Below, in pieces: positions 3,621 through 48,499 of a DNA stretch of 64,000 nucleotides (position 1 is the stretch's first letter; every line of letters begins with the position of its first letter). The DNA is taken from the NCBI GenBank assembly GCA_036172245.1, contig JAYWIR010000078.1:62001-126000 (forward strand). Direction: 5' to 3'. The notes under the pieces are model-generated. The model was not told where the DNA came from, searched no databases, and saw nothing but the letters and a program-made list of their open reading frames with translations. The DNA comes from Raillietiella orientalis. Its lineage: Eukaryota. Made by a program: the position numbers and the translations under genes.

Positions 3621-4199
3621 ACGGACGAGATCCAGCATCCAATCTTGAAAACGCCAGCAGATCTAAGGAGATAACTGGAAACCAAGATGGGGATCACCGG
3701 ATGCGGAAAACTCGTCAAAGAGAAAATCAAGACGTCATTCGACCAGCTGGAGATAAGAAAATGAGAAACGAAGAGGTAGAGCAAGGAAAACCTTACCAAA
3801 TAAAAAGAAATAGGTAAAGCAAGCAGGGAAAGGTTCGACGAAGGACAAAAACACAGTTCAGCTCGCTTAAGAATAAGTAGAAATTGAAGTAAGAATTGGC
3901 TGCGCTGCATTGCATGTTTGGGGTCCTTACCATATGCGATACCACTTCAGAAATGTCATACATCGCCCATCACTCCCCGACACATTCAAATGATAGTTCG
4001 AGGGGATGACACTGAAAACGACATACAAGCCATTTTGTTTCAGCTACCTGCACCTCTGATTGAAAACAAAGAATCTCCTTCGCTCCAATGCTGTACCGTC
4101 TTCCGCATGAGGCATGCATTTGCCATAGAGAATACTTTACCATCCGTTACTCCTTTCTTCCTTCATTGAAAGCAGCAAATTTTCGTGACTCTTTACTAA

Positions 4200-5535
4200 A
4201 AAGTCGCTCCTCCATGCATTGGAAAAGTGCGTACACGAGCACTTCCCGCTCATGTCAACGCCCACTACTTCCATCCTCTGATGCGTCACAGGAGACAGGG
4301 ATTTGGGTATCGTTTGAGGCAGCTCACCACCTTGTTGGAAGCAAATACATGGATTTCCTGCCGCCCAATGAATACAATGCATGGCGGCAGGAATCCATTG
4401 ATTCCTTGGCTGCATTCTTAGGAATGAGCCACGAAAATCTTCGCCCCCTGCATCAATTTCAACCTTGGTCACTCCAAGATATGATGCAGGACGAGGTGAA
4501 GTTTTCCTCCCTGGCCGCCACGCCCCTTGCCGAAGCATTGCCTGCCCTAGAGGTTCGAGAAGACAGTAGCCATCCGGCAAGGTGGGAGTTCTCCTGCACC
4601 ATTGCAGGAAGAACGAAACCACTTGGCCAATGGGCCACGAGCGAGCTTGCGGATGCCGCCACTCCTCGTGCTACACCAAAGGGGAGAAACTCTTGGTGTT
4701 TCCCCCAAGGAACTTATAATCCCTCCCTGGTGTTTGGACGGCTCGGTGTTTCCCCTTGCATGAAGCAAGACGTCTTGCTCTTCTTGCACTGGGGTTTGTG
4801 CTACAACGAACGGCGCCACCGAGTTTCCGGTGGGGTGGCTTCACCCTACTGTGCCCGGTGCGGTGCGACGGAGTCGTTTCCGCACCTTGTTTTGGACTGC
4901 GGTGTCCTCCAGGAACTCTGGCGGAAGTTGGCAGCAGCACTCCTGCTACCGAGGGACACCGCCCGAGAAGTGCTGCGACGTTTCTTCCAAGCCCAAGGAC
5001 TTTCGAAGGCTGCGATGATTTCCACAGCTGGTTGCATCCGCGCCATCGTCACGGTCCGAGACGTGCTGGAGAATAGTGGTCAGCGATGTTGTGTCACCAG
5101 GAAGGCAGCCGACTTCATCAGAGCGGCAGCTGGGTGGCGACACCTGGACGAAAACGCAAAGGAGGAGCTCACTGGCATTTATCGCCGTATGATACACGGT
5201 TTGGAACGAAGAACCCGGTGATCCTTCTCCATTCCCCTGTTTACTTTATTTTTGTTCTTGCGCCCCACTTCCCATTCGCTCCGTAGTGCCTTTGGTGCTT
5301 TTCCTTTTTATCTTTTCCGGTGACTTCGGAGCGTCACCAAAGTTCCCTGGCCCATTCCTCCCATTTAGACTTTACTTTTTTGTTTATAGTCCCCTTCCCC
5401 ATTCGTTCAGGTCCTTCCGTTTTCCTGGCCTGCGTGCCAGTGGTGTATCTCCGTTGTTGGTTCTTGTAGTCGTTGGTTGGAAACAACTATTTCCAGCTAG
5501 TATATAACAATAAACGTCCCGGCGTGACCGGGTAA
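4200..5535 (+). mobile_element. L1/Tx1-clade LINE 3' fragment (family A): ORF2 C-terminus with zf-RVT-type finger and 3' UTR
   Basis: ORF 4088-5221 has LFLHWGL...CARCGATESFPHLVLDC. It is followed by a pyrimidine-rich UTR, AATAAA 5509-5514 and terminal hairpin cccgg-cgtga-ccggg 5518-5532. 5' boundary approximate. Confidence 0.85.
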
Positions 5536-7689
5536 CCAACTTCCATCCTCTGCAATCGAAACGTCTGTCGTCAGAGATATGCAGTTGAAATGAAGGCTCC
5601 CCTAGCAGAGGTCTTTGAATCTCCAGCGCAACGACAAGGACTCTACAGGGAATAGTCCGCAGCTTCCTTGGCAGAATCGCGAGCAGCCCTTCGTTTGTTC
5701 AGAGGGGCCTTGAAGGAATAGAAGATTGCCCGTTGCTATTGAAGCTGCACACAACGGCAGCGCCTCCTTGGATTCATGACGGATTTCGAGGCACGAAGCT
5801 TCCTTCAACATTCCGGTTTTCCCTGAGCCAAATTCAAAAGACAGGGGGAATACAGCTTCCACGCTGTCCTTGATGAACGCGCAGGCGATTTTCTTCCTGC
5901 GCTTGATACGCTGAATAGTTCGTTGGATCGAAATTCCGACTTTTGCCTTGCAGCGTTATTAATCATCTGGAAATCAAAGAGCAGTTCAACTTGAGCTCCC
6001 AGAGACTGCCCACAGAAGCATGAAAGGTATGTTCGAACGTTCCACTTTGTTGTTCCCGGTTACCCCCAGAACTGCATCCCCTATTCAGGAAGACGGACAC
6101 TGATTATTCAATCCACTTACAACACGAAATGGAGAACGTGGTTTACCGCAATTGCTATTCTTCTCGTACCACTTCCCAGCACGAATAGCATGGTCAATGC
6201 GTCAAAACACGCAATGCACTAACGAGCTAGCCCCTCGCTGGGAACCCAGATGGATGCTCTCTCCGTGGACTTAACCAACAGTCCACCACTTGCGCTAAAC
6301 GAGAAATTCTATTTCAAAAATGCTCTGCGGCTTGCGGCACAGATTCGTACCCACTCAACTCGACCCTACCGAAACCCATGACTTCAACAACCTAAATGAG
6401 TACCATAAACAGATGACTGCAAAGAAACAAACCTTGTCGAGTGGGAACACCGAAATTTTGACAATGAAGTGACTCATTCTATTCCACACATAGTACCCAC
6501 ATGTTGGCTTTAGGTCCTTCGCTTTTCTAGAGCAGCTATCTACATCTAATCATGCTCTTCACATCCCGTTTTGTACATACTTCTCTGCCTCCACGAAACA
6601 GAAAATTCATGGTAAACACAATCTCCTCTTCGCTGTCCATGCTCCATTCCTCCACCCTCCACCAGATATTCCATCTTACTGCATCCGTTATCAACCGTCC
6701 ATGCAAACTTTAGTGCCCAAAACTTTTACCATCCCTGCACAAAGGTCCTATGTGCAGACTTGTAACTAGAATGGAATCGCTATTGAAAACCATCGTCATT
6801 AACTCGGTTGACTCCTCCAATGCTCTTTCGATGAACATCTTCATTGCCTTAGTATTCATCATTATCGAAAATCAATCCAGATTTGTCCAAAACACATTCC
6901 CATCATCTGCTCTCTTCTTTGCATCCTTCCATTGCAAACTTGCTGAAGCATTCAGCATTCATTCCACATACCTAGGAAAAAAAAAACACTGACCCTATGT
7001 CTCCCCTTCTACTTTTCGAAACCTGGACATCTATCATTCAACGGGTATCCCTCTGAGATTGAGTTTCATGTGACCACATTACCTGGCATATGTGTCCAAA
7101 TTCTTACACTCTCCAATACGCAAAGCTCATCTCGATCCGTTTCAAGCAGATCTTTGTAAATTAGCCATGGTCCTCATGCAAACTTACAACTTCACTTACA
7201 GAACCTGTACGTACATGAAAATATCGATGCAATACCAATCCACCAACCATTCCTCCTTCACCAATGCACATCCATGATTCATCCTTCATTCTCCATAACC
7301 GCCATCCATACCCCTCTCCCTGACCTGTTACGCACGCAAGAAACACACCCGTCTTGCACTCTTCAGGGTATCTGCGTTGGTGAGTTGCCTGGAAAAGAAA
7401 GAATTGAAACGAGAGCATCGATTTCCAAGAACCCTTTTCACAAGAATACTAAAAATTTTCCATTAGCTGCATTTTCCTTCCCGGAAGGTTTTTAACTGGC
7501 ATTCATCTTCTGTTCATATCTTCCCGTTCCGGACTCACCCACAATTCGGCTTGAACTCAAACTCTGTTGAGAAAACCGCACTACACGCCATAGCAGCACC
7601 CCGCTTGAACGCAATTGGTTTCTTAGGGGCGAATGCTGGAAAGAAATCACAAAAGTCAACAAAAATCACAAAAGGAAGAGGTCCACCCT

Positions 7690-8690
7690 CTGAAACGTGG
7701 CTCCTGCCAGAGGACTGGCCGAGCCTCTCAGGAGCAGCGGAACATCGCGCGCTTCAGCGAGAATTCCAACTTCGGATGCTCTCTGACTGGGACGAAATGA
7801 AGAGCTCAGTCCGACCAGTTCTTTATGAACCGTCTTCCTCCGGCTTTTTGCGAGGGATTGAGGAAGCAGAGGGCCTACCTCTGCTTCCTCAATCCCTCAC
7901 AAACAGGTCCGTCTCTACTCCAGCAATGGACGTCCGACGACTGGCGGAACCAAGAGCTGGGGCCGAAATATAGACCTAGCAATCCGGGTCGACCAGGTTG
8001 CAGGACGCCGATAGCTGCGAATACTCAGACCCAGCGCAGGTAAACCGCATCTTTCGTGTTTTTTTAATCCTCACTTTACACGAGAGCAAGAGCCGAGCGC
8101 GCCTTTGAACAGCGATTGCTGCCAGCAGGCGCCTCAGCGTTGAGGGATGAGATTAGCAACCACCTCCAGGAGCCTTTCTCGATGGCGAAGATCACCTCCG
8201 CCATCGGAAAGCTGAAAAAACGAAAGGCACCAGGGATAGACGGTCTGCCCGCGGAGTTTCACCAGTGCTTCGCGGCAGAGCTGGTCCCCCTGGTGCTGAA
8301 ACTAGGCATGCTGATCCGCGAACGAGGGGACCTTCCCGACTCGTCCATCTAAGCTAGAGTACGTCTCCTCCCGAAAGGAGGAGACTTACGCAACGTAGGC
8401 AACTGGCGGCCCATCACTCTTCTGAATGAGGACGGGAAGTTGCTTGCCAATTTGTGGGGTGAGCGACTTGGACGGGTGGAGGAATCCGTGGTCAGTGTGG
8501 AGCAGACTTACGCGGTTCCCGCGCGAACTGTGGTGGCGATTCAGGTCAAGAGTATCCCGAGTTTCCTTTGTCGAAGGAGGGGAAGGCCAAGGGAGAAGAA
8601 CCGTGTCCGGAGCCATTGCAGTTGCCGATTTGCGTAAAGCATTCGATTTTGAATACTTTTTACCTGTACTGTGGCTGGACCAGTGATCAA
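7690..8690 (+). mobile_element. L1/Tx1 ORF2 fragment (linker and RT N-terminus), decayed
   Basis: KAPGIDGLPAEFH, LLPKGGDLRNVGNWRPITLLNEDGKLLA, EQTYAVPAR and ADLRKAFD, with stops and frameshifts. Confidence 0.8.
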
Positions 8691-8699
8691 GCGACGCCC

Positions 8700-8930
8700 A
8701 AGGAAACAATAGGGAATCTCCCGATTCACCTATTCGCAGACCGGTACGTTCTACCAAGGCAGCAGAACGAAGGGGGAGCAAAATAAAAAACAAAACAAGA
8801 ACAAGAGGAAATGTGGGGGGTGCCGGAGGAGATCACTGTTGCTTCTGGGGCTGTGCATCGTTTGCAGGATCCGGCAAGCTCTTTCTGCATTTCTGGAACT
8901 ACATGTAGCCATTTTTCCCCAAGTCCCACA
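8700..8930 (-). mobile_element. Family-A LINE fragment: ORF2 extreme C-terminus and start of 3' UTR
   Basis: WLHVVPEMQKELAGSCKR resembles WRHLDENAKEELTGIYRR at the end of ORF 4088-5221. It is followed by gtgatc and a pyrimidine-rich tract, as at 5218 and 13126. Confidence 0.55.
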
Positions 8931-9046
8931 TGAGGTGGGGTAAATCTATTTTTCCAATTTTACATTACATTCATACTACAATCACATTCACACTACTGGC
9001 ACTATACTACCACTTTGAAGTCCTTGGGGTGTCACAAGTTCTGCAC

Positions 9047-11081
9047 TCAGAGTGGGTTTCCAGATGTTTGGTTTCGGACGTCGTCCACAATGCTCTTCAG
9101 GATGAATCGGTACGTCCAGGCATAGATTCGTCCACAGTTCCTGATATCGATCTCCCTCTTGATGAGTCCTTGCAGGATCTCCATCGGGGGTGCGGCTCTC
9201 CTGGCTTTCCTCATCTTCCACCACCGCACAAGTATGGCGGTGATGAAGAGGGCGATGGTCGTTCTTACCATGGGATTGTAGCAGGGAACATTACCATTTT
9301 TCTAAAACATCCCGGATTTCCATCACATACTTATTGTTTCGTCCTATGATCCTTTTCAGGATCAGCCAGTCGTGTAGCAATGTGGGACACGTCAAGACAT
9401 GAAGTCTCGTATCGATGTCTCCACATGCCGTGCAGTCTTCATCTTCCCGTCTTCCGGTGAAGTGCTTGAGCCTGGACCCGCTTTGGATTCCTCCATGATA
9501 GAACATCAGGAGTTCGTCCTGGGTGCCCGGAGGAAGGTCACTCCTCCATAGCGTCGTGACGATTGCTAACAGGTTGATGCTGTCACTCCCGTAGCGATCG
9601 GCGGCTTCTTGGAGGGCACTGGTGTCTTGGTCCTGGTCCTTGATAATCTTCCGGAGATTCATCTTGGTTACCCTAGACCACTCTGGAAGTCGTTGTGGTT
9701 TATCCACACTTCGCGGGTCTTATGGGTGAACCTACCTAGCATCATCTCCATATACCGAAGTATACGAGTGTGATGTAGGTATCCTCCTCGTCGCCATTCC
9801 TGGATTCTTTGCAGGGTAACTCTGGGCCGCTGGTAGATCCAGCTTCTCGTGTCCGGAGGGACCGGAAGCATCCACGGGATCACCAGGATGAATTCCTCCT
9901 GCCAGAGTTCCCTGCTTCTCGGCACGATCTTGATGTTGTGCTTGCGCACCAGCCGCTGCTTTCTCCTCCAGGTTGGGTCGATGGTGTTCCACTCCTCTGC
10001 TCGGCCTAGCAGCTCAGTCATCAGGCCTTTCGAGTTGTTCAACAACAACGCGTAGGCCCTATGCACCGCGTACGGCCAGTCATCCCAGTGAGTAGCGATA
10101 TCCAGGATGTGTCGCGAATCCATGATTTCCATGGAGGTGCGACATCATCAAGCGACTTCATCCCGGAACCGCCCTCTTCTTTGGGACGACACAGGAAGTT
10201 TCAAACGAACTCTGGGGCAATAATGCCCCCACAATATCTTTCTTTGCAGCTTTTCTACTTCTCTGGTATTCTTTTTCTTCATTCTCGCGAAGGCCGCTCC
10301 AAAGAGCACCTTTGGAAGGAGTACTCCATTCCAGAGGTTGGCCTTTCGCTTCATGCCAAAGTCCAGTCGGGTGTACTTCTCTGCTTCTTTTGCCTTTTTC
10401 CCAGGATTTCCGTCCACAGTAGCTTCGACGCAGAGTCGTCGCCGATGTAGACTCCCAGGTACTTGGCCGCGTCCATTGTTTGAAATCCTCTCCCCGTGAG
10501 AGCGGAGAGATCCAGGATTCCGACGGGCAAAAGCTGGCTCTTCTGGGCGTTAATCTTCAGGTCCAGTCCTTCTTCCATTAGCGTCACCACATCCAGGAAT
10601 GCTTGCTGATCCCTCTCTCCCCTAATGAAGAAGAGGAGATCGTCTGCGTAAGCGAGATGGGTGAGCTTCTTGCTGTTGATTTCCATACCCCGTAGTCGCC
10701 CGCTCTTCTCGATGAAAGAAGACAGCGCCTCCATGTAATAACGAACAGCATCGGACTTGGAGAGTCTCCCTACCGAACTCCTCGTTCCATCCGAATGGCT
10801 GTTGTTTCTACCCCGTTGATCTTGATCCGGAAACGTTGATTCCGGAGGATCATTTCTACGAAGTTGCTGAAGTATTCCGGAAGTCCCAGCTTTTCCAGAA
10901 TCTTCAGCAGCATCCCGTGATCGATGGTGTCGAAGGCTTTCTCCATGTCGGTGAACGCCAGCACCAGGTTCTCGCCGACGTATCGGCTAAGTCCCACGGT
11001 GGCCTGCGCGCACTTGACATTGTCCGACATGTGGCGTCCGGGTACCGCACATGTCTGGACAGGAGAAATCAGCCTCGACAT
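9047..11081 (-). pseudogene. Family-B ORF2 RT and C-terminal domains (frameshifted)
   Basis: ISPVQTCAVPGRHMSDN, FTDMEKAFDTIDH, ERGVR*GDSPSPML, LAYADDL, KINAQKS, KYLGV and CTACGDIDTRLHVLTC across successive ORFs. Confidence 0.9.
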
Positions 11082-13417
11082 ACCATGGAGACCAACCTGT
11101 TCCTCGCCAGCAGCTGGTGGCAGCTGCAACAACGCGAGGCTCAGCTAGGTCGTGAGAGTCCTGGACTCTCCACAGATCGGGGGGAGGGAAGCCTAAGGGG
11201 AGAAGCGGCGCCCGGAGCCCTTGAGGTCGCAGTCGATCTGCGTAAAGCTTTCGACTGCGTCGACCAGGAACTCCTCCTGGAGCTCCTGGAACGCATGGGA
11301 TTTCCTGCCGTCTTCCTGGTCTACCTGCGCTCCTGCTGGCGCTTCGCGTTCATCAATATTAATTTCAGCGGACGGCACGTGTACGGCGTTCCGGTTCGTC
11401 GCGGTATCCGGCAGGGTGACAGCCTCAGCCCCCTGCTCTTCAGCATCTACTTTGAGTTGGTGCTGAGAGCATACAGGGAGACTTTGGCAACCCTGCCGAG
11501 CTCGTGTCCCGGCACGCCTGCCGTGTCGACCTATGCCAACGACCTTCTGCTCCTGCTTCCCGGGTCCACCCCGGCATCGGCGCTCGAGGATTTCTTCGAG
11601 TTGCTGCGCCGTGGAACTGGTCTCGACGTAAACAGGGCGAAGTCGTCCATAATTCAATCGGACACGTCGCGGGCAGGACGGTCGGACTGGAACCGCTTGG
11701 GGATCCCCACGGGCGGATACATCAAGTACCTTGGCGTTCCGTTGGGGGACTTCTGCGCTGCAGAAGCCTGGTTCGACCGTCTCCAAAAGGTGGAGTTGGA
11801 GATCGGCCCGTTCCGGGACGGCAAGTTTTACTTGCAGGAAACGGGCCGCGGTATGGAACGCCTTTGCGGCCCCCTTCCTTCGCCCCCTACTTTTTGTGTG
11901 TCCCGCCCCTCCCCAAATTAGGACACGGTCAAGGGACCTCATACGGAAAGCCCTCTGGGGCAACCGGAGGCCCCGCGCCCGCCTTAAAGACTTGTGCGCT
12001 CCACGCAGGGACGGTGGACTTGGTCTCCTGACGTTGGAGCGCATGGAGCGACAGCTCCAATTTAGAAAACTTGCCCTTGTGGCAAAGTATTGGACAGCAC
12101 TCTGGTGTGCGCCGGCAAGACTCCACGCTCACAGGGCGACCGGCTGTTTCGGATTGACCACAATCCTAGTAGCCAACGACCGTAGCCTAAACCATTGTGG
12201 GTTTCAGCTACGGGACTTGGTTGCCCTGTTGAGAGACAAACCGTGGATCTCCTGCATCCCTGCGGACTGGACTACCTAGCTACAGGAGTCCGTTTCCGCG
12301 TGGGCCTAAATCAACGGCTCCAGCGATGAGGACTTCTCCTGCCTCCGTAGAGGCAGGTAGGCTAATCAGCCACTGCAGGAGATCGTTTGCAACCCACGGA
12401 AACTTCTGTGGGCTTCCTTCACCCTCCTTGCCATCGTGCTGCCCTCCCTCAGGAAAGTTAGGGACAGCCAACATGAGGCATCGTGGGAAGTGTCCTGCCT
12501 CATCGGAGGCGGGAAAAAACTGTTGAAGGCGTGGACATCCCGGGAACTAGCGGACGCTAGTACCCCCTCTGTCCCGCCGAATGGACTTGTACGCTGGGGC
12601 GCGCTGCTCGACGTATCTCTGGAGGAGGTAAAGTGACCCCCAGCGTCTTGGGACAACGGCACCCTTCCCCTGCAGTAGCAGGAGACGGCGTTGCTTCTGC
12701 TCCATTGGGGACTTTTAAGCAGAGCACGCCTGTCTTACTGGACATCGGGGAGTGTGGATGCCAATTGCGTCAAGTGCGGGGAAAGGGAGTCCTTCCCCCA
12801 CTTAGTCATCGATTGTGTTGCTCTCCGCGAGATGTGGGACCGACTCTCGTCGATCCTGAACATTCCGGTGGGCGACCCCAGGAACATCTCTAGACGCCTC
12901 CTGATGCGGGACGCCTTGCCAGCCTCCGGGTGTAGCAGTGCTCTGTTGCATACGCGGAATCCTGGACAAGTGGACCGCGTCAAGGAGAGGCCGGACCAGT
13001 CGGAATGCCATTCACTGGGCAGCCATCTCCTTGGAGAAGGCCTGCCGTTGGCGCCGACTCAAGAAACATTTGCCGGCACTTGTTCGCATCCGCAACCGGA
13101 TGCAGAGGCCTCCTCACGGTGTACCGTGATCCCCTCCCTTCCCCTCCCCCCGCCCAAAGAACATTGCCTCCCCAGGCGGTTTCCTTTTTTTGGTTTTATT
13201 TTTGTTTTTCCCGCCCCTGCGCCAGTGTGGAGGACCTTATCGGCCTGCGGGTCGGTAAGGACAAGTGCCACAACATAGTCGGATCATGTGTTCCGACGCA
13301 AAACAAATCAACGGAAAAAAAAGAAAAACTTTACTTGACAAGCAAGCAAGACTTTATTATGAAATTTTTATTGTAAAAATTTTAATAATAAAAGCCCCGG
13401 CTCACCCGGGTGAAAAA
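11082..13417 (+). mobile_element. 5'-truncated family-A L1/Tx1 LINE inserted antisense into family-B ORF2
   Basis: VDLRKAFDCVD, RRGIRQGDSLSPLLF, YANDL (YADD decayed), VNRAKS, KYLGV, GGLGL and CVKCGERESFPHLVIDC. The 3' UTR ends aataaaagccccggctcacccgggtgaaaaa at 13417. Confidence 0.9.
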
Positions 13418-14796
13418 CCTCTTCTTCAGAGAAATCCTCCTCCAGTCTCCTCCGTTGGAGGTCGTCTATCTTCTTCTCAAGATGGCTCAAGAAGGTCTTC
13501 TGCATCGCCTGACACAGATGTTGTCGCCGGAAGTGTCCCGTGTATTGCCTTTCGAAGGCGTCCACGATGTCCTCCGACGTGTGTCGGCTATGGTCGCCGT
13601 CCTGAATACTGAAGATATCTGAAGCCAGATTCTTCTTCTCCAGCACGCCGACTTCCTCTTTTACGCTATGGAAGACGTCCCGACTCTCGTACTGATCGAA
13701 GTACTTTGAGAGGGAGCGATCTTGGATGTTCAACTCCCGGTACGCCTCCTGCCTCAGTCTCTTATCGCCAAATTGCATTTCTGCAAACAAATGTATCCTG
13801 TGCTTCAGGCTGTCCCAGTCGGCGACTCTTCTGATCGTAGTGGTCTTCAGAATCGCCTCCAGGACCTCCTGATGACAGGGATGGGTTTCGAACCAGGCGG
13901 GCATGCTGATGAGTGCCTCCCTGGTGCCTTGCCTTCGCCTAGGATTTTCCGTCCTCAGGGAAAACAGCACCAACGGGTGATCCGACAGCGCAGTGAGCGT
14001 GTCGCGAAAACCTTGGATGCGGTTCCCTAGTTCGGTACTGTGAAGGATGTGGTCGATCGGCTTGTGGCTAGCTGTTCGCCACAGCAGCCCGAACTCGTCG
14101 GACAACCGCCAATTCGCCGTCCTTCCCCTGGAGTCCTGGGAATGGGTGATCACATCCAGGATGTTGAGATCGCCAGCGACGATCGCGACGTCCTTGGGCG
14201 CGACCTTTTGCCGGAGAGCTGCATGCAGCGCCTCCGCACACCGATGTTTCAGTCTGGGTGGCCCGTACACGCTCACCAGGAAGAGGTGAACGGTAGCGGA
14301 CCACGCCAGTCGCACGCCGATGATGCGTCCCGGCAAGGGACAGAGGACTTCCAGAATGGTGGAGGCCAGGTGGTTCTTGATCAAGACCGCCACACCTTCC
14401 GTGTTCCGCCGTCCCTCGCTGACGAACATCTGGCTATCGAGGCGTCGTTCCATCTGTTGGCTGATCTGGTGACCCAGCCTGTGGGTCTCCGGCAGGATGT
14501 CTTGATGTTTTCACCCGGATAAGCCGGGGCTTTTATTATTTTAAAAAATCAGAATTACAATTATTAATTGCAGTCGATTGATTATCATTGCTTTTGTGTT
14601 TCTGTCGGAACACTTTTCCGTATTGTTTTGCACTTGTTTACCGACTTGAGTGCCGGTAAGGCCTACTCCACTCGCGAAGGATGTCTTGATGTGCGATGAT
14701 CCGCACGATCCTTTTTCTTTTCTCCTGGTCGATCAATCCATTTACATTCCAGAAGGCGATGTTGATCCTCCTGGAGGTCGATAGAGACGAGGTCAT
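13418..14796 (-). pseudogene. Family-B ORF2 apurinic-like endonuclease (APE) domain, split by a 169-bp insertion
   Basis: ATG 14796 gives MTSSLSTSRRINIAFWNVNGL...HQDIL, then after the insertion PETH, GVAVL, VSVYGP, AGDLN, IDHI and SDH. Confidence 0.9.
14509..14677 (-). mobile_element. 169-bp family-A 3'-end-only retroinsertion with 15-bp TSD
   Basis: Direct repeat aggatgtcttgatgt at 14494-14508 and 14678-14692. The insert is homologous to the 3' UTR at 13215-13417 and ends AATAAAAG-CCCCGGCTTATCCGGG-TGAAAA. Confidence 0.9.
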
Positions 14797-14808
14797 AAAG
14801 GGGAAGAC

Positions 14809-16395
14809 CTACTTCTTGGCCTTCCTGAATTTCTTCTGTCTGGGAGGTTGTTGTGATCTCCCAGACGAAGAAGAAGCAGTGGGCTTCTCGCTGCCAGCGT
14901 CACTCTCCTTTTCGGTGAGGTCGGTAACATTGGCCTCCTCGGTGGAGTGCTCGGCTTGTGTGACGAGTTTACGTGAAAGTACTTCCAACACCACCCTAGC
15001 GCAGAAGTTTGCCTTTACGTCGAGAAGCTTGTCCTCCAGCTTCTCGCGCTCGGCAGTTTCCACCACCTGGTTGATGGTTTCTTGCGCATTGCAGATCTTC
15101 TGCAGGAGTTGTTCCTGCTGAGCTCCGCTCTGCGCCTCCGCCACTGCTTCTGCCAGTTGTTCCACCACTTCCGTGGTCTGCAGGACCTCCTGCGACACTG
15201 GGGTGTGCTCTGGCGTTTTCGCCACCTCGCCTTCCTCCCGACTTCCATCCTCTCGGCCTCCTCTGCCACTACTTCCGGGATAAGAGGAGTTTCCTGTTCC
15301 TTGACGAGCATCTTCCTCTTCCCCTTCTTTCCTACTTCTACAAAGCCGTCCGCCGAAACCGGAGCGGCCTCCTTCGCCTTCCTCTGTTTTTCAGTCACCT
15401 TTCTAGGCTGTTCCGCCTCCTTGAGGGTTCTTTCCTTCATGGGGGAAAGCCCTTGCATCTTACGGCAGTTGGCGTATTCGGGACAGCTCCACTTAGCATA
15501 TCCCGGTTTTTTGCAAAAGGAACAGACTCCCGGCTGCTGGCAATTGCGGACTTGGTGTCCCTGTTTGCCGCAGCGGAAACAACGTGATCTTGGGCAAGCA
15601 TTGACCCTGTGGCAAAACTGCTTGCATCCGGTGCAGAATACCGGTTGCTGCCGGTAGCGCATGCTCACCTCTTGGGAATCGCCATCAATGTGTGCGATCC
15701 CGGGAATCACCGTATCTTCGAAAAGCGTCACCTTAGCGATCACGTTACCAGAAAAGATCTTCCTGGAGAAGTTCTGGAACTCAAGTTCCAGTACTTCCCC
15801 ATACCTTGCAAGAAAATCCCACACCGTTATTTGGGTGGTATATATGGATACTCCACTTAGGAAGACGGTCGTGTATGGCATCTCGCCGATGCCACGGACC
15901 ATTCTTCCCTGGATGTTGATCCCCGTTTGGATCAACGCTTCCCTAATGTGTTCGCAGTCTGTGTAGACTGTGAAACCCGATGTACTAGGGATGATCGCCT
16001 GGATGCGATCAAAGTATACATTCGCCTTGTACAGAGACAAGTAGACCTCTCTGATGTTATGGAACCGGATTAAGTCGGTCTTGAAGGTGATGGGCTTCAC
16101 GTTCGGACCCACCCGAACGATCGGCTCGTCCACCCTGGCCAGCTTCCCACATTCCGGTTTCCCGGAGCTTCTCTGGGGCTGGGCACTAGCCTGGCCCGCC
16201 GCCACCGCCGCGTACGAAGATGGCCGCACCGCCGCAGCCGAGCAAGATGGCGTCGCGTCCTGCGTGGACGCCCGCGGGTCCCGCCTGGGACGCCGCCGCC
16301 GCGGGCGCGATCCTTGGAGTCGCCGCCGCCTCGCCAATGCCGTACTGTACCTCCATTGGGGACGTCGGCCTCTCCACTGCTCCCGATGCCTGCAT
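14809..16395 (-). pseudogene. Family-B ORF1 (Tx1-type gag-like, CCHC zinc knuckles), probably two frameshifts
   Basis: SYAAVA motif, RRM-like TTVFLSGV...LARYGEV, and three knuckles CTGCKQFCHRVNAC, CFRCGKQGHQVRNC, CSFCKKPGYAKWSC. The stop at 14809 lies 12 nt before the ORF2 ATG. Confidence 0.85.
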
Positions 16396-16872
16396 CCTCG
16401 CGGCTGACACTGCCGCTGGGGAAGTTAACAGGGCTTCCACCGTGGACTCCTCGGTGCTGCTACTGCAGGTGGTGAAGGTGGTCCTCGGCTGCACTGTCAC
16501 TGTCACACTATTTTTCCTTGACTCTTCCCCGCTCAGGGCACGCAAAAATTGCCGCGGCAGTGGTTTTACGCACTGCCTTGGCGGGGTATTGGGTAAAGTT
16601 TTCAACTAGTAATAATCGCGCCTCCCCGTAGATCAGCCGCGGCGATACTGCCCGTGCGCGAGCCTGACTGACAGTCCTCGTCTCAGCAGCAGAGGAGCAA
16701 TCTGCCGATCTGCCGACTGCAATCTGGTGGCGACGGCAACACCGCCCACCAACCAACACGTGAGGCGGCACAGCAAACGCAGCAATTGACTGCACTATGC
16801 CTTAAGTCAGAGACATCTCTCTGAGACCCGGTGTGTCCATTCTGCTACTAGATAGCCTACTTATGTGGCCAT

Positions 16873-19803: not shown

Positions 19804-21182
19804 TCATTCTAACTCTGTTTCACATGCATTAACAAAAATGTAGCTGGGAAGTTCTGAACCATAGAGCGAAATAGTATAACAGGTTTGCTCTACTTTTTCT
19901 AGATTTTTCTTTAGGATAGAGAGCTTTTTATACAATTCTCTTGATGAATAAGGCATGACTAACTGGTAACCATTATAAATGCATTGTAAAAACTCGGAAA
20001 TTGCATAGCATTCCTTTAGATTACCAATGCTTGCTGAACTAATACTTTTCTTCATTAGTTCTCCAGTGAAATCTGCTATACCAGCTAAATAGTCAGCAAA
20101 TGGTACGACAACATGAAAGGAACCTTCATCAGAAGAAAATTCTAATGTTTTTTCTATATAATCCAGGCTGACTAGGTCAGTATTTTCCAAGTAGTAACAA
20201 AAGGCCACTGCTTCAATATATTCCTGCAGACCTAAGTTGAGAGAAAGATTAAATATGAGAACCTGTGACTAATCAAATTTGCATGTAATGCATTTTGTAA
20301 ACTGTGACTGAGAGATCACAGAAATTAAGGAACTGGCTAATACTATACATCACAAAAAGCACTCCATATTCCATGTGCACAAAGAAGCATTAAGAAGTCA
20401 AACCTTAAAACTTTTCCAAAAGATTATTAGCTCAAGAAATTATATTACAATACTTTCAATACCCCTATTTTCAGACATGGGTCATATACAAATGAGGGAA
20501 ACCTCTTATTTAAGAAAATTATTAATTCATTATCAAATTTAAGAAACCAAAAAGAATTTGACAGATTTGGTTTCATAAACGTGAGTTCAAGTCCTATCCA
20601 TACACTTCCATTAGTTCCAAAATGTAATTCCAGTATTTACATCAAATGCTATAGAAAGCAAAAAAGATTTTCTTAAATTAGACACACTTCATTAAGGCAA
20701 GAAAATCACAACCTTTTCGAGAACAGCATAAAAACGACACAGTTCTGGGTTCGTTTAATTCAAGTACATATAAACTCATTCTTAAAACCCGTGCAATCAA
20801 ATGAAAAGCCAAATACCATTTGTGTAAGCTTTCAAAAATTTATGATGATCCTCCGCTTTAAGTTCTTGGGCAATGATTCTCCAGTCCAGTTGTTGTAAGT
20901 TTTTTAATCGCAGTTTTACATCTTCAATAGAATCGTTTGATGACTGTGAATTCCTGAAATTGAAATTATTACGAACATCAGAACATGTGAATGCATCATT
21001 CACGTTTCCTTATAATTTTACATAAGCACTCTTGAAAATTGTTCCACTCACTGAGAAAGACGCTGTAACTGGTATATAATTCTTTTGCTTTCGATGTTGA
21101 TATTTCTTGCAATTTTGAAAATTTTCTCATGTTTGTTGTTTTTATTATCTAACTGATGGCTAAGATGGGCAAACGACAACAT
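19804..21182 (-). CDS. TSNAX: Translin-associated factor X (TRAX), 3 exons: 21182-21052, 20953-20817, 20231-19804
   Basis: LDNKNNKHEKIFKIARNINIESKRII, GLQEYIEAVAF, YLAGIADFTGELM and LEKVEQTCY..GSE. GT-AG introns keep the frame. Confidence 0.9.
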
Positions 21183-32700: not shown

Positions 32701-35700
32701 AAGCGTGTGCAAGACATCCGTGAAGATGAGTAAAACAACCGCGCCAACAACACACTCCGAGGCGCCAGCGTGGAGACAACTTTTCCGTAACCGTTGGTCG
32801 TTCTCGTGTCTCCTTTAATGGACGCAGGACGTGCTGGCACACGAGGCTCCGGAAGAATCCTATTGCCTTCATTCAGAAATTATTTGGGATGGAGATGAGT
32901 ATTTTTAATGAAAACTTTTGATCCAGTTATGTGACCTCGATAACAATTCGCTGTTTCTATGAAATCTCCATACTTTGTCATTTACGTTTCCGTTTTATCT
33001 CTAACCAAAATAAATACTCACAAATGTTTGTTTTGCATTTTTTTTTTTTTTTTTCCCTTTTGGATAAACGATATTTTACGGTAACTCGAACAGTTCCGTG
33101 TGCTGTTCGGTATCACTTACCGGACAGTGCTAAAATGTTTATTTTTGGTTGGAGATAAAATGGAAACTCAGAACACAAAGTCTCAGTCAGATAGGAAGGT
33201 TCAGTGATTTCGCAATACAACTGCTAAAGGAAATTCTTGTCGAAAATTGAAGGCATCAGAAACGACCGAGTAAAGTACAATCCCGGAAAAATTCATCCAA
33301 GATCACACTTCACCGGCTACGAGAGGTTTTGCATCTGTTCCGTGCGGAGAAAAGGTGGATCTTTTCATTTTTTACAGATTGGTAACCCAGCTCGAAAACT
33401 TTTTTCGAGAGATGTTCTGTAGATGCCTCAAGCGGGAGGATTCGTCGCCTTCCTTCTGGCTCTTGAAGACGACGGCGACGGTGAAGATCGAAGAGTTGAA
33501 AAGCAAAACGAGAAGGAGCAAAGGAAGTCGACTCGAGAATTCGTAAGAAGGCCACAGATTGATTGGAACGAACCGAAAGGAAAAAGTCTGCACGAGGCTG
33601 AATAAAACGGAAACTATGGGGGAATATCGCAATGGCAATATGACTAAATGGAGCACAAGTCTGCTAGCTCTTGAAAAAAAAAAAAGATCAATTTCGAATA
33701 ACCTGATAGAGTCTCGTCGAATCAAAATGGGCTTTCCATTTTCATCCACATTTCCTTCGTCAAAAAAATCAGCAATGAGTTCGTTTCGTTCGTGGTTTAT
33801 TAAGAAAAAGGAGCATCGATCTGCATTCACCATTTGTTTAGCAAAAGTCTAGGTGCCAAGGCTGATGTGAAAACAACAACAACAAAAAAAAAATACATGA
33901 ATCGGAATGCTTACAATTGTTTTCGCAATAAGCGAATCCATGAGAAAAATATCATCGAACTGTGATGTGGTAATATCACACAAAAAATCGTTGAGTGTCA
34001 TCTGATTTGTGAAATTATTGCATCTTATCATCGTATGGGCACTTATTCCCGCCCACGCTGTCAAACTCGATATAAGCTGACGGTCTAACTGTTAAAAGAG
34101 AGACAGTTATTCCCGATGGTTCAATCAGTCATCTTTCTTTTTTAAAAAAAAAAAAACAGGTTCGTTAAAAAATGACCTCAGTAAATGGGAGACTCCCTAT
34201 GAATTTCCGAAATTCCACAGCATAAAGGGCATCATCCATGTCACAGATTATGGGAGAAGCTAGAATTGATGAAACTCCCGAAGTCTGAAACTCTTCTGAC
34301 AACAAGAAAACCATTAGCTTAAGTCAATGCTATAATACGAAGATATTTACTTCGGATCTTCTCGTTTTCTATGAATCTCTCATCACATATGCAATCCTCT
34401 ATCAGGATGACTTCCTTTTTTGAAATAATGTAGGCAGCAATAGAATCAATGGGTTCTAAAGAGTAATCGTAAAATGCATGTATGTTATTTTGCAAGAGTT
34501 CAAGTGCTTCGGCTGAATATCACTTACTTTATATGCATATATGAATTGAAAACAGAAAATACAGAAACTCTTTAGGGAACAGATTTTGCTTATAGGGGTT
34601 TCAGTTTTTGATGTGAATTGGATTTTTTCGGTTATGAGCACTTACTAAAACGCATTGAAATTTCCATGTTTCCGAATAGGTAAACGTGCTGATTTTGCTA
34701 GTTTTCTCTCTATTTACCCGCCCTCTCTCTTGACCACACTTGATTCCTTTTGGTCACAAGTTAAATCATTATTTCCTTGAGAATATGAAAATGAAAGCTT
34801 CATTCATAGATGAAAGTTACTCTTCCCTATGGAAACTGTTTAGATGACAGTGTCATTTATATATGATTATGAGTGACTGCATCCGTAACAGGAGATGGCA
34901 TTTTACTGTAAAATTCCGACCAGCACTTTTGGCACTTTTTTCCACGAGATTGCCGATAGTACATAAGCTCTCAGCTTTTCCTCCGAGAGCTATGGCAGGC
35001 TTCGCATAGTGATTTCAGAATTCCTTTTCGGTGAAAAACGAATATTTGAATAGGGGGGTTTTGCGTTTTCTGTATTTACAGGATGACGAACCTATTCGAA
35101 ATAAATCTACGGGTTCTTGCCGACAGACTTAAACCTCCAGAACTGATCGTTTCAATTACTTGAATTAGGTTGCAGCAAGGGTGTACGCGAACGCAATACG
35201 ACTGATGCCATGGTATTTTTTTCACTAACGGCTATGATATTTACTTTGACATTTGATTCACTCATGACTTGATATTATGTTCACTAATCGAATGAATAGA
35301 GCGCCGAAATAGAATAATCAAGAATAGCTTTTCTGTTTTGCCGCGTTATTTAGCATATCCATAAGTAATACGTTCGCAGAAACGGATACAGCGCACAGTC
35401 TGCATCAAAATGAGGAGCACGTAATATCCTACACAACAACTCATGTACACTTATGAAGGAAGCATCTGCTTCATCTCGCTAGAAATGTTTCATTTCAAAT
35501 GCTTGCTGAACAAGATCTCGACAGGATAAAGAGTTGATTTGTACACCTGGTGACCGAACATCGCTTTGGCCTCCGTTTCAAGAATTTTCGTGTGTGGTTT
35601 GTTTTCATTTGTCCTTGGAGCTGATGGTCAAACGAATGTGGGCGTGGGTGTACGATGGTAGGCACAAAGGTAATGCTCGCTTTTGTCAATGAATCACCTC

Positions 35701-38700
35701 AATGGAAACGCAATTGGCTGGAAACGTCGAAAACGAAACGGATTTTCCGAGGAAGAGGACTTGAAATCAAATTGGTGCTTCGAAAAACACCGAGTAGTGA
35801 GATTTTCAGTACACTATGCGGTTCGGATCACTTTGACTGGAAATAAACTGCTTGATGACCAGCTTCAAGATGCATCGCAGCGGAGATCTCTCGACTTCCG
35901 AGTTGAGCTCAGTTTACTTCGAGCGATCATTCCACTTTTTGCACGTGAAACTCACAGTCTTCTCCCGCCAGATGACTACAAGGACCAAACATTGTCTTTT
36001 CTTTTGGATATTTTACGATAGCAAAGGCAACTCGAAGAACAGTACCGTGTGATGTTTAACAAGATATGATACACGGATGAATGGATGGAAGGTTGCGATA
36101 TTTGCTGCTAATGCTGCTAATTGTGCGTAAAAACTTAAACTGTACGTAAACATTCATCAGCAATTTCATGTATTTAAAAATTAAAGGTTGTATGCAAGAA
36201 TCCTTTAATTGGATTTGGAGGAGACACCGAACTTAAGTGGAGAATACCTTATGCATCTGAAAGCTTCGAGCTCTGAAATTTCCTCTTTACTTTTCTTTCC
36301 GTATCAGAGATTTTGCTTAATGATGACTTTTCGGAAGTGCCTGATAAATAACACGAAACAGCACACGGTACTGTTCTTCGAGTTGCCTTTGCTGGGTCAG
36401 TTCTGAAGGTTTAAATCTGTCGGCAAGAACCCGTAGATTTATTTCGAATAGGTTCGTCATTCTGCAAATACAGAAAACACAAAACCTCCTTATTCAAATA
36501 TTCGTTTTTCACCGAAAAAGAATCCTGAAATCACTATGCGAAGCCTGCCATAGCTCTCGGAGGAAAAGCTGAGAGCTTATGTACACTATCGGCAATCTCG
36601 TGGAAAAAAGTGCCAAAAGTGTTGGTCGGGATTTTACAGTAAAATGCCATCTTCATAATTAGCAGTATTAGCAGCAAATATCGCAACCTTCCATTCATTC
36701 ATCCGTGTATCGTATCTTGTTAAACATCCACTTAAAAAAAAAAAAAAAGCAAAAATCCACAATCTGAAGCCAAAAATGCCATTAAAACAAATCTTTAAAA
36801 ATGGAGAACGTAGCCATGCATACTTGGAATTTGTATAATGTGCCCAGATGGCTAGTCAGTTGCATGTGGGGAATCGCTAGCGACAGCCCACAAAACGTTG
36901 GTAACTAGAAAAGTGCGTCTGCGTCAGTTTCCTGAAGTCATCCTCCTGTGGGACATTTAACTGTAAAGTCGTAATTATTACAAGAAACAGCAGTGCAGTA
37001 GACTTTGGATCGGGAGAAATGGTCCTGGACTAAGTGGGCCTCGACAAAAGCTTGTGGCCTCTTTGTATTGCAAGACGAAATATAAAGAGGTAAGTAAGGG
37101 TCATTTGTTGCTCCCCTACTCTGGTTGTTTCCAAAAGCAACGCCCCCTGAGGGACAGTTGCGCAGTTTAGGTTTTCGCGGGTTATACAAAAGTTGGTCCA
37201 TACATTCCCAGAAGCTGAACAAAAATAATGAGAAAGCGAATTCCGTCACTTCTTCCTTTCTAGAGATTTGCGTTTTGTGCGTTTTCCGGTGGTAAAACGC
37301 ACAAATTTTTCGTAAGATTTGATCTTTGATAAAAGGAATCCCCTCTTCCTCCTCAAAAAACGAAAACAAAAGAAAAAACGGGACAATTCTTACTTAATTT
37401 CCATCGTAAACAGTTAGATATAGAACCAGAATCGAAATACTGCACTATTTCGTCACTGCTCCTGTCGGCAATGAAGAATTTCATGCCTGGAAACAAAACA
37501 GAATTCGACACTTTTCGAAACTGTATACAGCTGAATCTGTATACTAGAATCACAATTTTCTTGTCGCTCTGATGTCCAGATAGGAAGCACAAAAAAAAAA
37601 AAAAAAAAAAAGAGAGAGAGGGGAAAGAATCAAAGTAAAACAATAATAAATAAATACTTTTAGAGGAATTGAAAATACTTTTAGAGAAAACGGTTGCATC
37701 TTTCGCTACGTTTTCATTACAGCACGCGTACACGTATTTTGTTTTATTGCTCAGTTTGTCACATTTTCGCGCTACAGCCTTCATGAAATCCAAATCCAAA
37801 TTGATGCCTGAAGACTTCTACATATCATCAACCCTTTGAATACGCACACTGATTCAGTGGAAACGATAAAGATTCAACTTTCCCCTCAGGAATTGCAACT
37901 AAGCTGCCCTATCGATATGCATACCTATCGGTGCCCCCCCACCGAACATAGTTCAACGCAAGTTGTCCGTCGATATGCTTATGAAACAACAATTCGACCT
38001 TGAGAGACAACTCTGCTTTTGTAGGGAATCTGAAACATGATTTTCAGATGCCAGGGTGATGTCGAAAAGTCATTATCTTCAAGATTTCCAACTTTCTTGG
38101 GTACCAGCGCTTGAACTGCAGCGCCACAAAAAGAGGGGGGGAGGAGGAGGACAACGATAGGAAGAGCTCATGTTCTAATTTGGAGGAGGTCTCAATCCGG
38201 AATCCTGCAGGCATAGCTTGAGAAACTGCATGAGGAATAACCCAGAGGAGAGTCTACTTACAAAAATGGCCTAACCTTTTCGTGTGGAGCTGAAAGTAGC
38301 GCAAAAGCCAGGTTAGCACTTGGACCAGTTGTAGGCAAAGAAACAGACGGAAATGGAAGCATTTTGCTTCAAACATCAGCACACCAGCATCATTCATAGC
38401 GCACCACAACCACCGGCTCAGAAACTACTTCGGAAGAACACACTTGAAGTTCTATAACTTGCTGGCCCTGATAACAACCGAAGATGTATGTTATTTTGGC
38501 TCGAGGATGAAGCTCGTCTTAAATGTATAGCTTACAGGCATGATGAGATGGTCCACGTGAATGGGAAATGAGAAAGGAAAATTGGGGAGGGCCCTTCGTT
38601 ACCGTGGGCTTGTTCATAGTAGTCCAAGTCTTCGTGCAATGGATGTCACAAAAGCTTACAATGTTTTCAAGTATTAAAAGGCTTTCTGATCTCAGAAATG

Positions 38701-46600: not shown

Positions 46601-48499
46601 ACTTAACCTCAAACAAAATATCGAATTAACCTCCCAAAATTACTTTTGATATGACATTTGAAACATATGATGCGAAAAGTAGAGTGCTTAAAGTAATGAT
46701 TAAAATAATTTCTGCTGACAATAGTATAGTTTTTTGCAACTGTTTTTGTTCTTAGTAGATTTCTTGGATTTTCAATTATCAAGTGAGGTATTTTCATTCT
46801 TAACTCACATATTATCCAATATGCAAGCATTTGTTTTGAAGGTCCAAGTTTCACGAGAACTTAGGTGACAATTGTCCTATGTAACAGTACAGAAAACAAA
46901 GTTAATACAAATCTTTTTTGTCTAATTGTGAAGAAAGGAAGATAATTCACAACTATGCAGTTCGTAGTTTTGAAAATCATCGATGTTGAATAGGCTACAA
47001 AATCTGCGTATGTGCATCTTTAATGAGTCAAAGATTTTAGATCTTTCAACATTTTTGTATTATTTACTATTTCCATGCAAGCATTTTTTCTGATAAATTT
47101 GAAGAAAACAGCTTCTTTACAGTGTAATCAAAAATTGCCTAGCTTTTTCGGAGAGAAAATATTTTCAGAAAATATAGGAGAAGAAAGACTTCTTTAAAAA
47201 TCATTTTTTTAATAAAAAAGACAAGGAGAGTCATCTACGCAAAGACAGTATAATTATTGAGCTCATTCTGAGTTAACTGCTTGGAAATCATTATATGAAC
47301 TCCAACTAACAGGTAATCTGAGTCAGATGGGGAAATAGACTGATTATCGCTAGTTTAATTTTTGACTGATACAGAATACCGTGAATACTTCATTCTTCCT
47401 ATCACCAGATTTCTACATACAAAAAAAATATAACATGAAATTCATTTCGCATCATCTCTTAGATCTGTACTGTGGTTGAATTATATTGTAATTGACATTA
47501 AAATTATGAGAAAAAGTACTTCAATCTAATGAAGCATGAAAATGCTTTTCGTTTCGTTCCTTTTTTGATGAAATTCTACTGTAAAGAACTGAGCAGTGCT
47601 TTTATAGCTAATTTATCTAAAATATGTGCAGAAACTTTATCATTTGACTAGATTAATAGTTTTGTTCAGTTACTTTTCATTTTATGTATTTTGCTTTTGT
47701 TCTTTTAATTTTTAACAATGGTTGCATATCACTGACTCCGAGCCATGTGAATTCTAAGCTACCACAGTTGCTGAAATTTCCCGTTGTAGGTCATTAAATA
47801 GCATTGGAATATACTATATTTGATACCGGTCTACATTTCAATGCCTTTTTTCCCCAATAACTTCTAGGAGTAATGTTAAAAAATCTCATCAATAAATAAT
47901 ATCTACTGTGATTTATACAGCTAAATATTTGGCAGCTTTGTGGTGGAAATTATGATTAAGATTTAAGGCTTATTGCGTTTCAAACGAAATAAAAGCAGAA
48001 ATGTTCTGTCTCTGAGATTTGGAATTCCGATTATTGATTTCTTTTTATATTACACAGTACTTTTTAGTTTCACTTAAGTAATCGAGTGATCATACAGAAT
48101 GATTTCACTTCGACAGTGGTAACGCGCACTGCTGCTTTCAAATTTTCCATGGAGCTCCTTGGTATTTCCAGCAGAAGTGTCCGTGTGCTTTTTGCGATTT
48201 TCATTGATTTCCAATAAAACAAGCTACTAAAATACATTATTTTTAGATAAATAACAATATCTGAACTTCGATGCATGTTGAGAAATTTTATTCAATTATT
48301 GTTTACATCTGGTCACGCCTGGGCATTTCTTGTAAAATGCATTTACATAAATAGGCATGGTTTGAGACAAAAAATCGTTCATAATTGGCTTAGAGATCCC
48401 ACTACGTCGATGTGGGTTTGGGAAGTGTTTCTGCTTGCAAACAAATTCCTTATAGAAGTTCACAAAAGGAAAGCAGGAAGAAGGGAGAGAAAATGAATA

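Follow-up and report, generated by a model that had tools for sequence, protein, structure and literature searches.

Template choice by long interspersed nuclear elements (LINEs) is central to the spread of LINEs, short interspersed nuclear elements (SINEs) and processed pseudogenes. Most LINE clades use a 3' stem-loop, while mammalian L1 uses poly(A). Here we describe the 3' ends of LINEs in a 64-kb window of Raillietiella orientalis DNA (contig JAYWIR010000078.1, positions 62,001 to 126,000; the window is the whole stretch that was analysed, and all positions below are counted within it). Three elements, called elements 1, 2 and 3, end in a 5-bp hairpin that follows an AATAAA hexamer, and a fourth, element H, ends in a hairpin of the same geometry. 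Judging from the anatomy of these ends and by analogy with described systems, we read the hairpin, with a probability of roughly 0.55, as a cis-acting 3' RNA stem-loop of the stringent type whose action is coupled to end formation directed by AAUAAA. We regard it as a well-defined candidate, not as a demonstrated mechanism.

In eel UnaL2 and the zebrafish LINEs (ZfL2), which belong to the L2 clade, a 3' stem-loop is described as being bound by the protein of open reading frame 2 (ORF2) and as required for retrotransposition (PMC4176376, PMC1636434). In a monocot L1 lineage, the LINE1-1_ZM group, a conserved 3' hairpin with compensatory changes has been described (PMC3472496, Ohshima 2012); divergence within this group is 0.144 for the terminal region versus 0.570 for the whole element (PMC3472496). 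An algal L1 (L1-1_CR) shares its tail with a SINE, and the plant and algal data led to the proposal that the L1 ancestor in green plants was stringent, with relaxed recognition in mammalian L1 described as having developed in parallel (PMC3472496). The first-pass annotation of this DNA had drawn a contrast with L1 that is too sharp, as stringent L1-clade lineages with 3' stem-loops were already published (PMC3472496). Outside these groups, the C-module of Dictyostelium TRE5-A is described as a structure in which point mutations in stem I abolish retrotransposition and mutations in stem III reduce it (PMC3159450). For human L1, a position-specific stem-loop in the 3' untranslated region (UTR) has been proposed, from computation only, as a recognition signal for the reverse transcriptase (RT).

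The terminal hairpins

The pattern CCCGG-N5-CCGGG has exactly three matches in the window and matches in 0 of 100 dinucleotide-preserving shuffles. When both strands were scanned for AATAAA (55 + 49 = 104 hexamers), only these three AATAAA/ATTAAA sites were found to precede a stem, which was required to be GC-rich, perfect, at least 5 bp long and within 8 nt after the hexamer. We therefore regard the observation of three hairpins as real and not as a product of chance. The first-pass annotation had given the same sites, strands and loops (CGTGA, CTCAC and CTTAT; Table 1) and had placed each hairpin 3 nt after AATAAA, which the hexamer scan confirms. It had also taken the sites for LINE 3' termini, and this is borne out by perfect duplications of 14 and 15 bp that flank elements 1 and 3, two of the five exact direct repeats of at least 14 nt that are spaced 100-3000 bp apart in the window. 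Element 3 is inserted in the endonuclease coding region of the minus-strand element H, and its excision in silico together with one duplication restores a 402-codon ORF with a complete apurinic/apyrimidinic (AP) endonuclease N-terminus.

The hexamer and the hairpin form a module that occupies the last 27-30 nt of an element, the end lying 21-24 nt past AATAAA. From hairpin to terminus there are 6 nt in element 1 and 5-6 nt in element 3, as set by the duplications, 5-7 nt in element 2 and 13 nt at the putative end of element H. Because the 14-bp duplication bounds the copy, element 1 ends in ...CCGGG-TAACCA, and element 3, the other copy with a perfect duplication, ends in TGAAA(A); neither carries a long poly(A). 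Since the duplications on these copies are still perfect, the short tails are original, as would be expected for precise initiation beside a recognised structure. A tail of the form T(G)A2-5 had been ascribed to all three ends; it describes copy 2 (TGAAAAA) and copy 3 and is wrong for the TAACCA of copy 1. The flanks, which had been described as diverging, do not diverge freely: elements 1, 2 and 3 have in common AAYAATAAAMGY ahead of the stem and a T after it, and both element 1 and the element 2 family read AAYAATAAAMGY-CCCGGC....CCGGGT.

The 15-mer hairpins of the four intact ends were predicted to fold at -6.0 (element H) to -7.7 kcal/mol (element 1). Within the last 120 nt of each element, the five pairs reach probabilities of 0.90-0.98 (0.91-0.93 in element 1 and 0.96-0.98 in element H), and the hairpin is part of the minimum-free-energy structure in 4 of 4 80-nt ends. 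The folding z-scores of the 80-nt ends of elements 1-3 are only -1.5 to -2.6. None of the four intact ends is matched by an Rfam family at E values up to 10. A second stem-loop is predicted just upstream of AATAAA in elements 1-3 (5459-5510, 13353-13392 and 14552-14572 on the minus strand), the three sequences being unrelated.

The three ends had been described as diverged, yet copies 2 and 3 do not come from independent families. Along its entire length, element 3 can be aligned with the 3' end of element 2, and the two are 94% identical in the last 32 columns (30/32, both differences sitting in the loop) and 62% identical upstream (104/167). Between elements 1 and 2, blastn finds no DNA similarity, and the C-termini of their ORF2 proteins are 32% identical. 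The three ends therefore represent two families, one of element 1 and one of elements 2 and 3.

The fourth end, that of element H, reads AAAAATAGATTTA-CCCAC-CTCAT-GTGGG-ACTTGGGGAAAAA from 8964 down to 8912 on the minus strand. Compared with CCCGG/CCGGG, two stem pairs have both partners replaced (G-C to A-U and G-C to C-G); its loop is similar to CTCAC and CTTAT. MAFFT aligned this end in register with the other three unprompted. In the resulting four-end alignment, 20 of 20 cells pair and two of the five pairs are doubly changed, in element H alone; pairing falls to 65% when the 3' partner is shifted by one column. The full pairing and the two double changes speak for a structural constraint on the hairpin. 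When the search was relaxed to CCC-xy-N5-y'x'-GGG, it returned four loci in the window, all of them at LINE 3' ends (8 strand counts; 200 shuffles averaged 1.01 and never exceeded 6), and a hairpin of the element H class arose by chance in the 382-nt UTR of this element in 94 of 20000 shuffles. All four intact ends agree in the first three pairs of the stem and in the first base of the loop.

A fifth, decayed end that resembles element 1 was found by a covariance model of the four ends (14.2 bits, E = 3) and then by local alignment. Its best local alignment with the 3' region of element 1 covers the terminal 40 columns exactly, with 30 identical, and scores 37.5, whereas the highest score among 100 shuffles was 32. 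This end retains the loop CGTGA, but its stem differs by two substitutions and an insertion of 2 nt, and its hexamer reads AAGAAA. As this dead copy shows, the stem is under no protection once an element has inserted. The hairpin had been called invariant, which remains correct for the three original sites and gives way in the fourth end with its two compensatory pair changes and in the fifth with its damaged stem. A further match of the covariance model (49876-49828, E 0.43) was judged too weak to count as an end, and an old LINE remnant (22763-21256, minus strand) was set aside because it has no recognisable 3' end. This remnant and three other LINE pieces in the window, at 17381-16903 (-), 8062-8647 (+) and about 8878-8655 (-), have no 3' terminus that could be examined.

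Proposed role and competing explanations

We propose an RNA module in which AAUAAA and 3 nt are followed by a GC-rich 5-bp stem that closes a 5-nt loop, and then by U(G/A)A with a few further bases. The transcript would be cut and polyadenylated about 21-24 nt past AAUAAA, just 3' of the hairpin. The ORF2 protein would recognise the hairpin and its flanks, as in stringent-type LINEs, and target-primed reverse transcription would begin within the first few bases of the tail. Because initiation would take place at the start of the tail, new copies would end 5-7 nt past the stem and almost without poly(A). Polyadenylation at this site, protein binding and a requirement for retrotransposition are what we infer from analogy with the described elements. 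The 169-nt element 3 was mobilised, and all that is needed in cis therefore lies within the last 169 nt. A wider and distinctly tentative suggestion is that animal L1-like LINEs start reverse transcription from a hairpin of about 30 nt fused to a poly(A) signal, and that this module predates the split of lineages that are now about 30% identical in the ORF2 C-terminal protein.

Several observations weigh against a stringent-type stem-loop. The evidence base consists of five LINE 3' ends from one 64-kb window, with elements 2 and 3 belonging to one family. Between these two elements the flanks are no less conserved than the stem, and the constraint can therefore not be assigned to the stem alone. 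The stems contain no G-U pairs, and pair counts thus do not distinguish RNA from DNA or one strand from the other. All covariation comes from element H, and the observed amount was reached in 27 of 500 shuffles used as a control for pair counts. Element H itself has no target-site duplication and only a putative terminus, its hexamer reads AATAGA, and its stem is followed by 6 nt more than in the other ends. A CCCCA/UGGGG pairing competes with the hairpin in its centroid fold, and shuffled sequences fold as well as its 80-nt end does (z = +0.56). The fifth end reverses the rule of a fixed stem and a free loop, though in a dead copy. Finally, no SINE with the same 3' tail was seen in the window, where all hairpin loci are LINE ends, although 64 kb is too short a stretch to rule out such a SINE in other parts of the genome.

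The main alternative is that the hairpin serves only 3' end formation or RNA stability: placed between AAUAAA and the cleavage site, it would fix or strengthen polyadenylation or shield the 3' end, with the RT reading a short A tail in the manner of a relaxed L1. We consider this explanation rather unlikely. In its favour, AATAAA stands exactly 3 nt upstream in three of the four intact ends, and the element ends 21-24 nt past the hexamer, a distance that falls within the usual range from signal to cleavage site. It would also make sense for LINEs, which would have no downstream element of their own, to carry an internal aid. However, priming anywhere along a long poly(A) does not fit the 3-5 A, or the TAACCA, in which copies flanked by perfect duplications end, and element H retains its hairpin through compensatory changes despite its AATAGA hexamer.

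A less probable alternative is that the block is shared by descent or by exchange of 3' ends between lineages and that the palindrome itself does nothing; any constraint would then rest on AATAAA and the bases next to it, or there would be none. The equal conservation of flanks and stem in elements 2 and 3 fits this explanation, as do the decay of the stem in the fifth copy once it was dead and the very small sample. Against it, blastn detects no further DNA similarity between element 1 and the element 2 family, which nevertheless have the same 15-nt geometry and the same distances to hexamer and terminus. Moreover, pairing in element H survives two double changes, and such a hairpin arises in only 94 of 20000 shuffles of its UTR.

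It is highly improbable that the palindrome acts at the level of DNA, either through snap-back of the first-strand complementary DNA to aid second-strand synthesis or as a protein-binding site in the integrated copy. The arms do form a perfect DNA palindrome that can fold on both strands, and the lack of G-U pairs means that no pair points to RNA. We know of no precedent for such a role in LINE biology, although no search was made for one, and a sequence-specific DNA site is unlikely because the loop varies between families and element H changes the sequence of the arms. Bacterial-type intrinsic terminators on the opposite strand (a hairpin followed by GCTTTTATT) in prokaryotic or contaminant DNA are rejected, terminator-like as the pattern is elsewhere (none of 22 metagenome loci, best tblastn E 0.23, and none of 21 viral-contig loci adjoins a LINE relative), because every site in the window is a eukaryotic LINE end, with target-site duplications, and the window has intron-containing eukaryotic genes.

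Classification and genomic surroundings

The layout of the elements is L1-like, given an AP endonuclease, an RT, a C-terminal Cys-His motif and an ORF1 with zinc knuckles. Pfam, run on all 142 stop-to-stop frames of at least 90 codons in the window, recovers an N-terminal AP endonuclease (Exo_endo_phos, E 2e-10) followed by the RT (RVT_1, E 6e-14). The C-terminal Cys-His motif of the L1 superfamily is defined as CX1-3CX7-8HX4C; elements 1 and 2 have CX2CX7HX4C (at 4850 and 12766) and element H has CX2CX7HX3C. The zf-RVT match is weak (E 0.01) and below the family cut-off. The label of an L1/Tx1 clade in the first-pass annotation can be kept as far as the domain layout goes, while its Tx1 part finds no counterpart in the insertion sites. 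The defining trait of Tx1 is insertion into one fixed target, and no single fixed target was seen among the three insertions, which lie at ACTTCCATCCTCTG, at ACATCAAGACATCCT and in the linker of element H. The three sites (4267-4280, 14494-14508 and 13418-13440) each start with AC and have ATCCT 7-18 nt on (n = 3), a loose pattern that may reflect a preference of the endonuclease or of second-strand cleavage.

The nearest named relatives of the element 2 RT are plant LINE-1 RTs (33% identity), and 8 of 11 matches carry zf-RVT. A full HMMER search with this RT returned 10301 representatives at E 1e-3 or better, and only two relatives at E 1e-30 or better, P0012 and P0013, from metagenome contigs of 2870 and 1425 nt. 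P0012 ends ahead of the C-terminal domain, and its contig probably lacks a LINE 3' end. Among the 150 distant relatives listed, 30 picked by length (949-1448 aa) include 19 with Exo_endo_phos, 15 with zf-RVT and 2 with RVT_3 (RNase-H-like). In the PDB, human L1 ORF2p (4.3e-13) and Bombyx R2 (6.5e-13) score alike, and no match was found for the ORF2 C-terminus or the endonuclease-linker ORF; protein searches with the endonuclease ORF and with translin gave no matches. A metagenome scan with ORF2 C-terminal protein patterns matched 287 stretches, none of which was confirmed. When viral contigs were searched with P0012, one stretch was counted as a relative and no locus was returned, and the alignment query gave none. 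A scan of genome contigs yielded five distant RT relatives (23-30% identity) on contigs of metagenome-assembled genomes. The one with a complete ORF2 (L044) lacks a hairpin of this type, and GATTT repeats form the end of its contig; it therefore represents an unrelated LINE type.

The elements lie in a GC-rich (52-57%) nest of retrotransposons without long terminal repeats, which spans about 4-18 kb of the window as judged from the Pfam matches. Outside the nest, the window consists of AT-rich DNA with eukaryotic-type genes that are split by introns (Table 1).

Table 1. Hairpin ends, LINE copies, target-site duplications and other genes in the window.
Feature	Position	Strand	Description
Element 1 end module	5509..5532	+	AATAAA (5509-5514), CGT, CCCGG-CGTGA-CCGGG (5518-5532)
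Element 2 end module	13387..13410	+	AATAAA (13387-13392), AGC, CCCGG-CTCAC-CCGGG (13396-13410)
Element 3 end module	14514..14537	-	AATAAA (14537-14532), AGC, CCCGG-CTTAT-CCGGG (14528-14514)
Element H hairpin	8925..8939	-	CCCAC-CTCAT-GTGGG; same 5-bp/5-nt geometry; AATAGA upstream
Fifth, decayed element-1-like 3' end	48299..48338	-	downstream of a degraded LINE remnant
Element 1	4281..5538	+	5'-truncated LINE: C-terminal part of ORF2, 3' UTR, tail TAACCA
Element 1 target-site duplication, upstream copy	4267..4280	+	ACTTCCATCCTCTG; identical to 5539-5552, 14 bp
Element 1 target-site duplication, downstream copy	5539..5552	+	
Element 2	11073..13417	+	LINE copy, 5'-truncated inside the RT; tail TGAAAAA
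Element 3	14677 down to 14509	-	169-nt, heavily 5'-truncated copy of the element 2 family; tail TGAAA(A)
Element 3 target-site duplication, upstream copy	14678..14692	-	ACATCAAGACATCCT (minus-strand reading), perfect 15 bp
Element 3 target-site duplication, downstream copy	14494..14508	-	
Element H, 5' part	13418..16526	-	ORF1, start of ORF2, AP endonuclease, linker; split by element 3
Element H, 3' part	8912..11072	-	RT, CX2CX7HX3C motif, stop 9294, 3' UTR, tail ACTTGGGGAAAAA
Split genes outside the nest			translin, GAF-containing phosphodiesterase, ADP-dependent glucokinase, EHD protein, Sds3-like protein

The ORF of element 1 stays open over 4064-5218, with homology to element 2 beginning near 4305. 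Element 2 has a Pfam RVT_1 match and an ORF2 with several frameshifts; its truncation point corresponds to residue 174 of P0012, to which it is 61% identical over 11073-11912 and 52% identical over 11827-12396 (tblastn). Its 3' end abuts the linker region of element H, and a target-site duplication was looked for and not found. ORF1 of element H runs from 16424 down to about 14809, is frameshifted, and stops 12 nt ahead of the ORF2 ATG (14796). It encodes two CX2CX4HX4C knuckles and a third in which Y replaces H (Pfam zf-CCHC, E 0.0012, below the family cut-off), and the Exo_endo_phos match given above belongs to the same element. The 3' part of element H is supported by Pfam RVT_1, tblastn and translation, about 100 codons are absent between the two parts, and no target-site duplication was found. 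Its terminus is placed at 8912 from the A-run, the alignment with the other ends and an element-2-family flank that starts by 8878, and is thus a putative one. Another of the five direct repeats of at least 14 nt lies at 20049 and 21661, 1.6 kb apart, near the old LINE remnant and a translin exon.

At 11072/11073, the 3' part of element H (-) meets element 2 (+) head to head, at nearly the same homologous position in the RT (residues 164 and 174 of P0012). Either the insertion of element 2 removed about 300 bp of its target, or element H is in fact made up of two separate copies. The simpler notion of element 2 as a plain insertion and element H as one clean element was dropped when P0012 revealed additional pieces of the element 2 family and rearranged junctions. 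One of these pieces, which makes up part of 8648-8911, is a minus-strand 3' fragment of this family (about 8878-8655) that is colinear with 13079-13325 of element 2. It is cut about 90 nt ahead of the expected position of the hairpin and sits between a plus-strand RT fragment of the element 2 family (8062-8647) and the 3' end of element H. This tail-to-tail junction implies that some of the nest has been deleted or rearranged.

Directly upstream of the element H ORF1 and in the same orientation lies a full-length U4 spliceosomal RNA (16527-16665, minus strand; Rfam RF00015, 79.9 bits, model positions 1-138 of 138). This could be a chimeric U4-LINE retrocopy that arose by template switching or a resident U4 gene flanked by a LINE; the relevant part of a published account gives LINE or transposon families that target U1, U2 and U6 genes and none for U4 (PMC4640811). 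Elsewhere in the window, a 256-bp inverted repeat of 95% identity (34893-35146 and 36397-36652), with arms about 1.25 kb apart, could represent the ends of a DNA transposon or a foldback element. A 63-nt near-perfect palindrome at 7844-7906 (86% self-complementary) has weak, sub-threshold Rfam matches to microRNA precursors.

Comparison with known systems

If diverged L1-like lineages in a genome of animal type carry a hairpin-plus-AAUAAA module, they would be a further and independent case beside the known stringent LINEs. If the proposed role is correct, stringent template choice would occur in animal members of the L1 superfamily, which would support an ancestral stringent L1 and a derived poly(A) dependence in mammals. 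It would further mean that a very small cis element, 169 nt at most, is sufficient for mobilisation. The module would also offer a compact and easily mutated element of about 30 nt for the study of the link between polyadenylation and the initiation of reverse transcription. In a limited literature search, we did not find this motif described.

The hairpin resembles that of UnaL2 and ZfL2, as these are described, in being a short conserved stem-loop a few nt from the 3' terminus with the tail directly after it, and in forming a family-specific 3' end that is kept while the remaining UTR diverges. Unlike in these elements, the layout here is L1-like, AAUAAA stands directly upstream, the ends consist of U(G/A)A and a few bases, and no partner SINE was seen in the window. 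Elements of the UnaL2/ZfL2 type end in short tandem repeats. TRE5-A likewise has a structured RNA module at the 3' terminus of a non-LTR element, which is reported to be essential there. Its C-module is, however, described as a larger structure of three stems in 54 nt with an unrelated sequence, in an element that targets tRNA genes. The stem-loop proposed for human L1 differs more clearly, with a stem of 8-10 bp that contains a bulge, a long poly(A) and, in the account given of it, classification as relaxed.

The likeness to the stringent L1 elements of plants and algae lies in a conserved 3' end that forms a hairpin and in a terminal divergence far below that of the remainder, elements 2 and 3 differing by 6% at the terminus and by 38% upstream. 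The plant elements are described as having variable stem bases, a conserved loop UCU, a conserved flank CGAG and poly(A) ends (PMC3472496). Here, by contrast with that description, three pairs of the stem and the first base of the loop do not vary, the other loop bases vary between families, the tails are very short, and the host is animal-like rather than a plant or alga. Stem-loops at the 3' end are already known for L1-clade lineages, and the present module is an addition to this known type. It differs from the known LINE stem-loops in its fusion to AAUAAA, its invariant pairs and loop base, and its very short tails.

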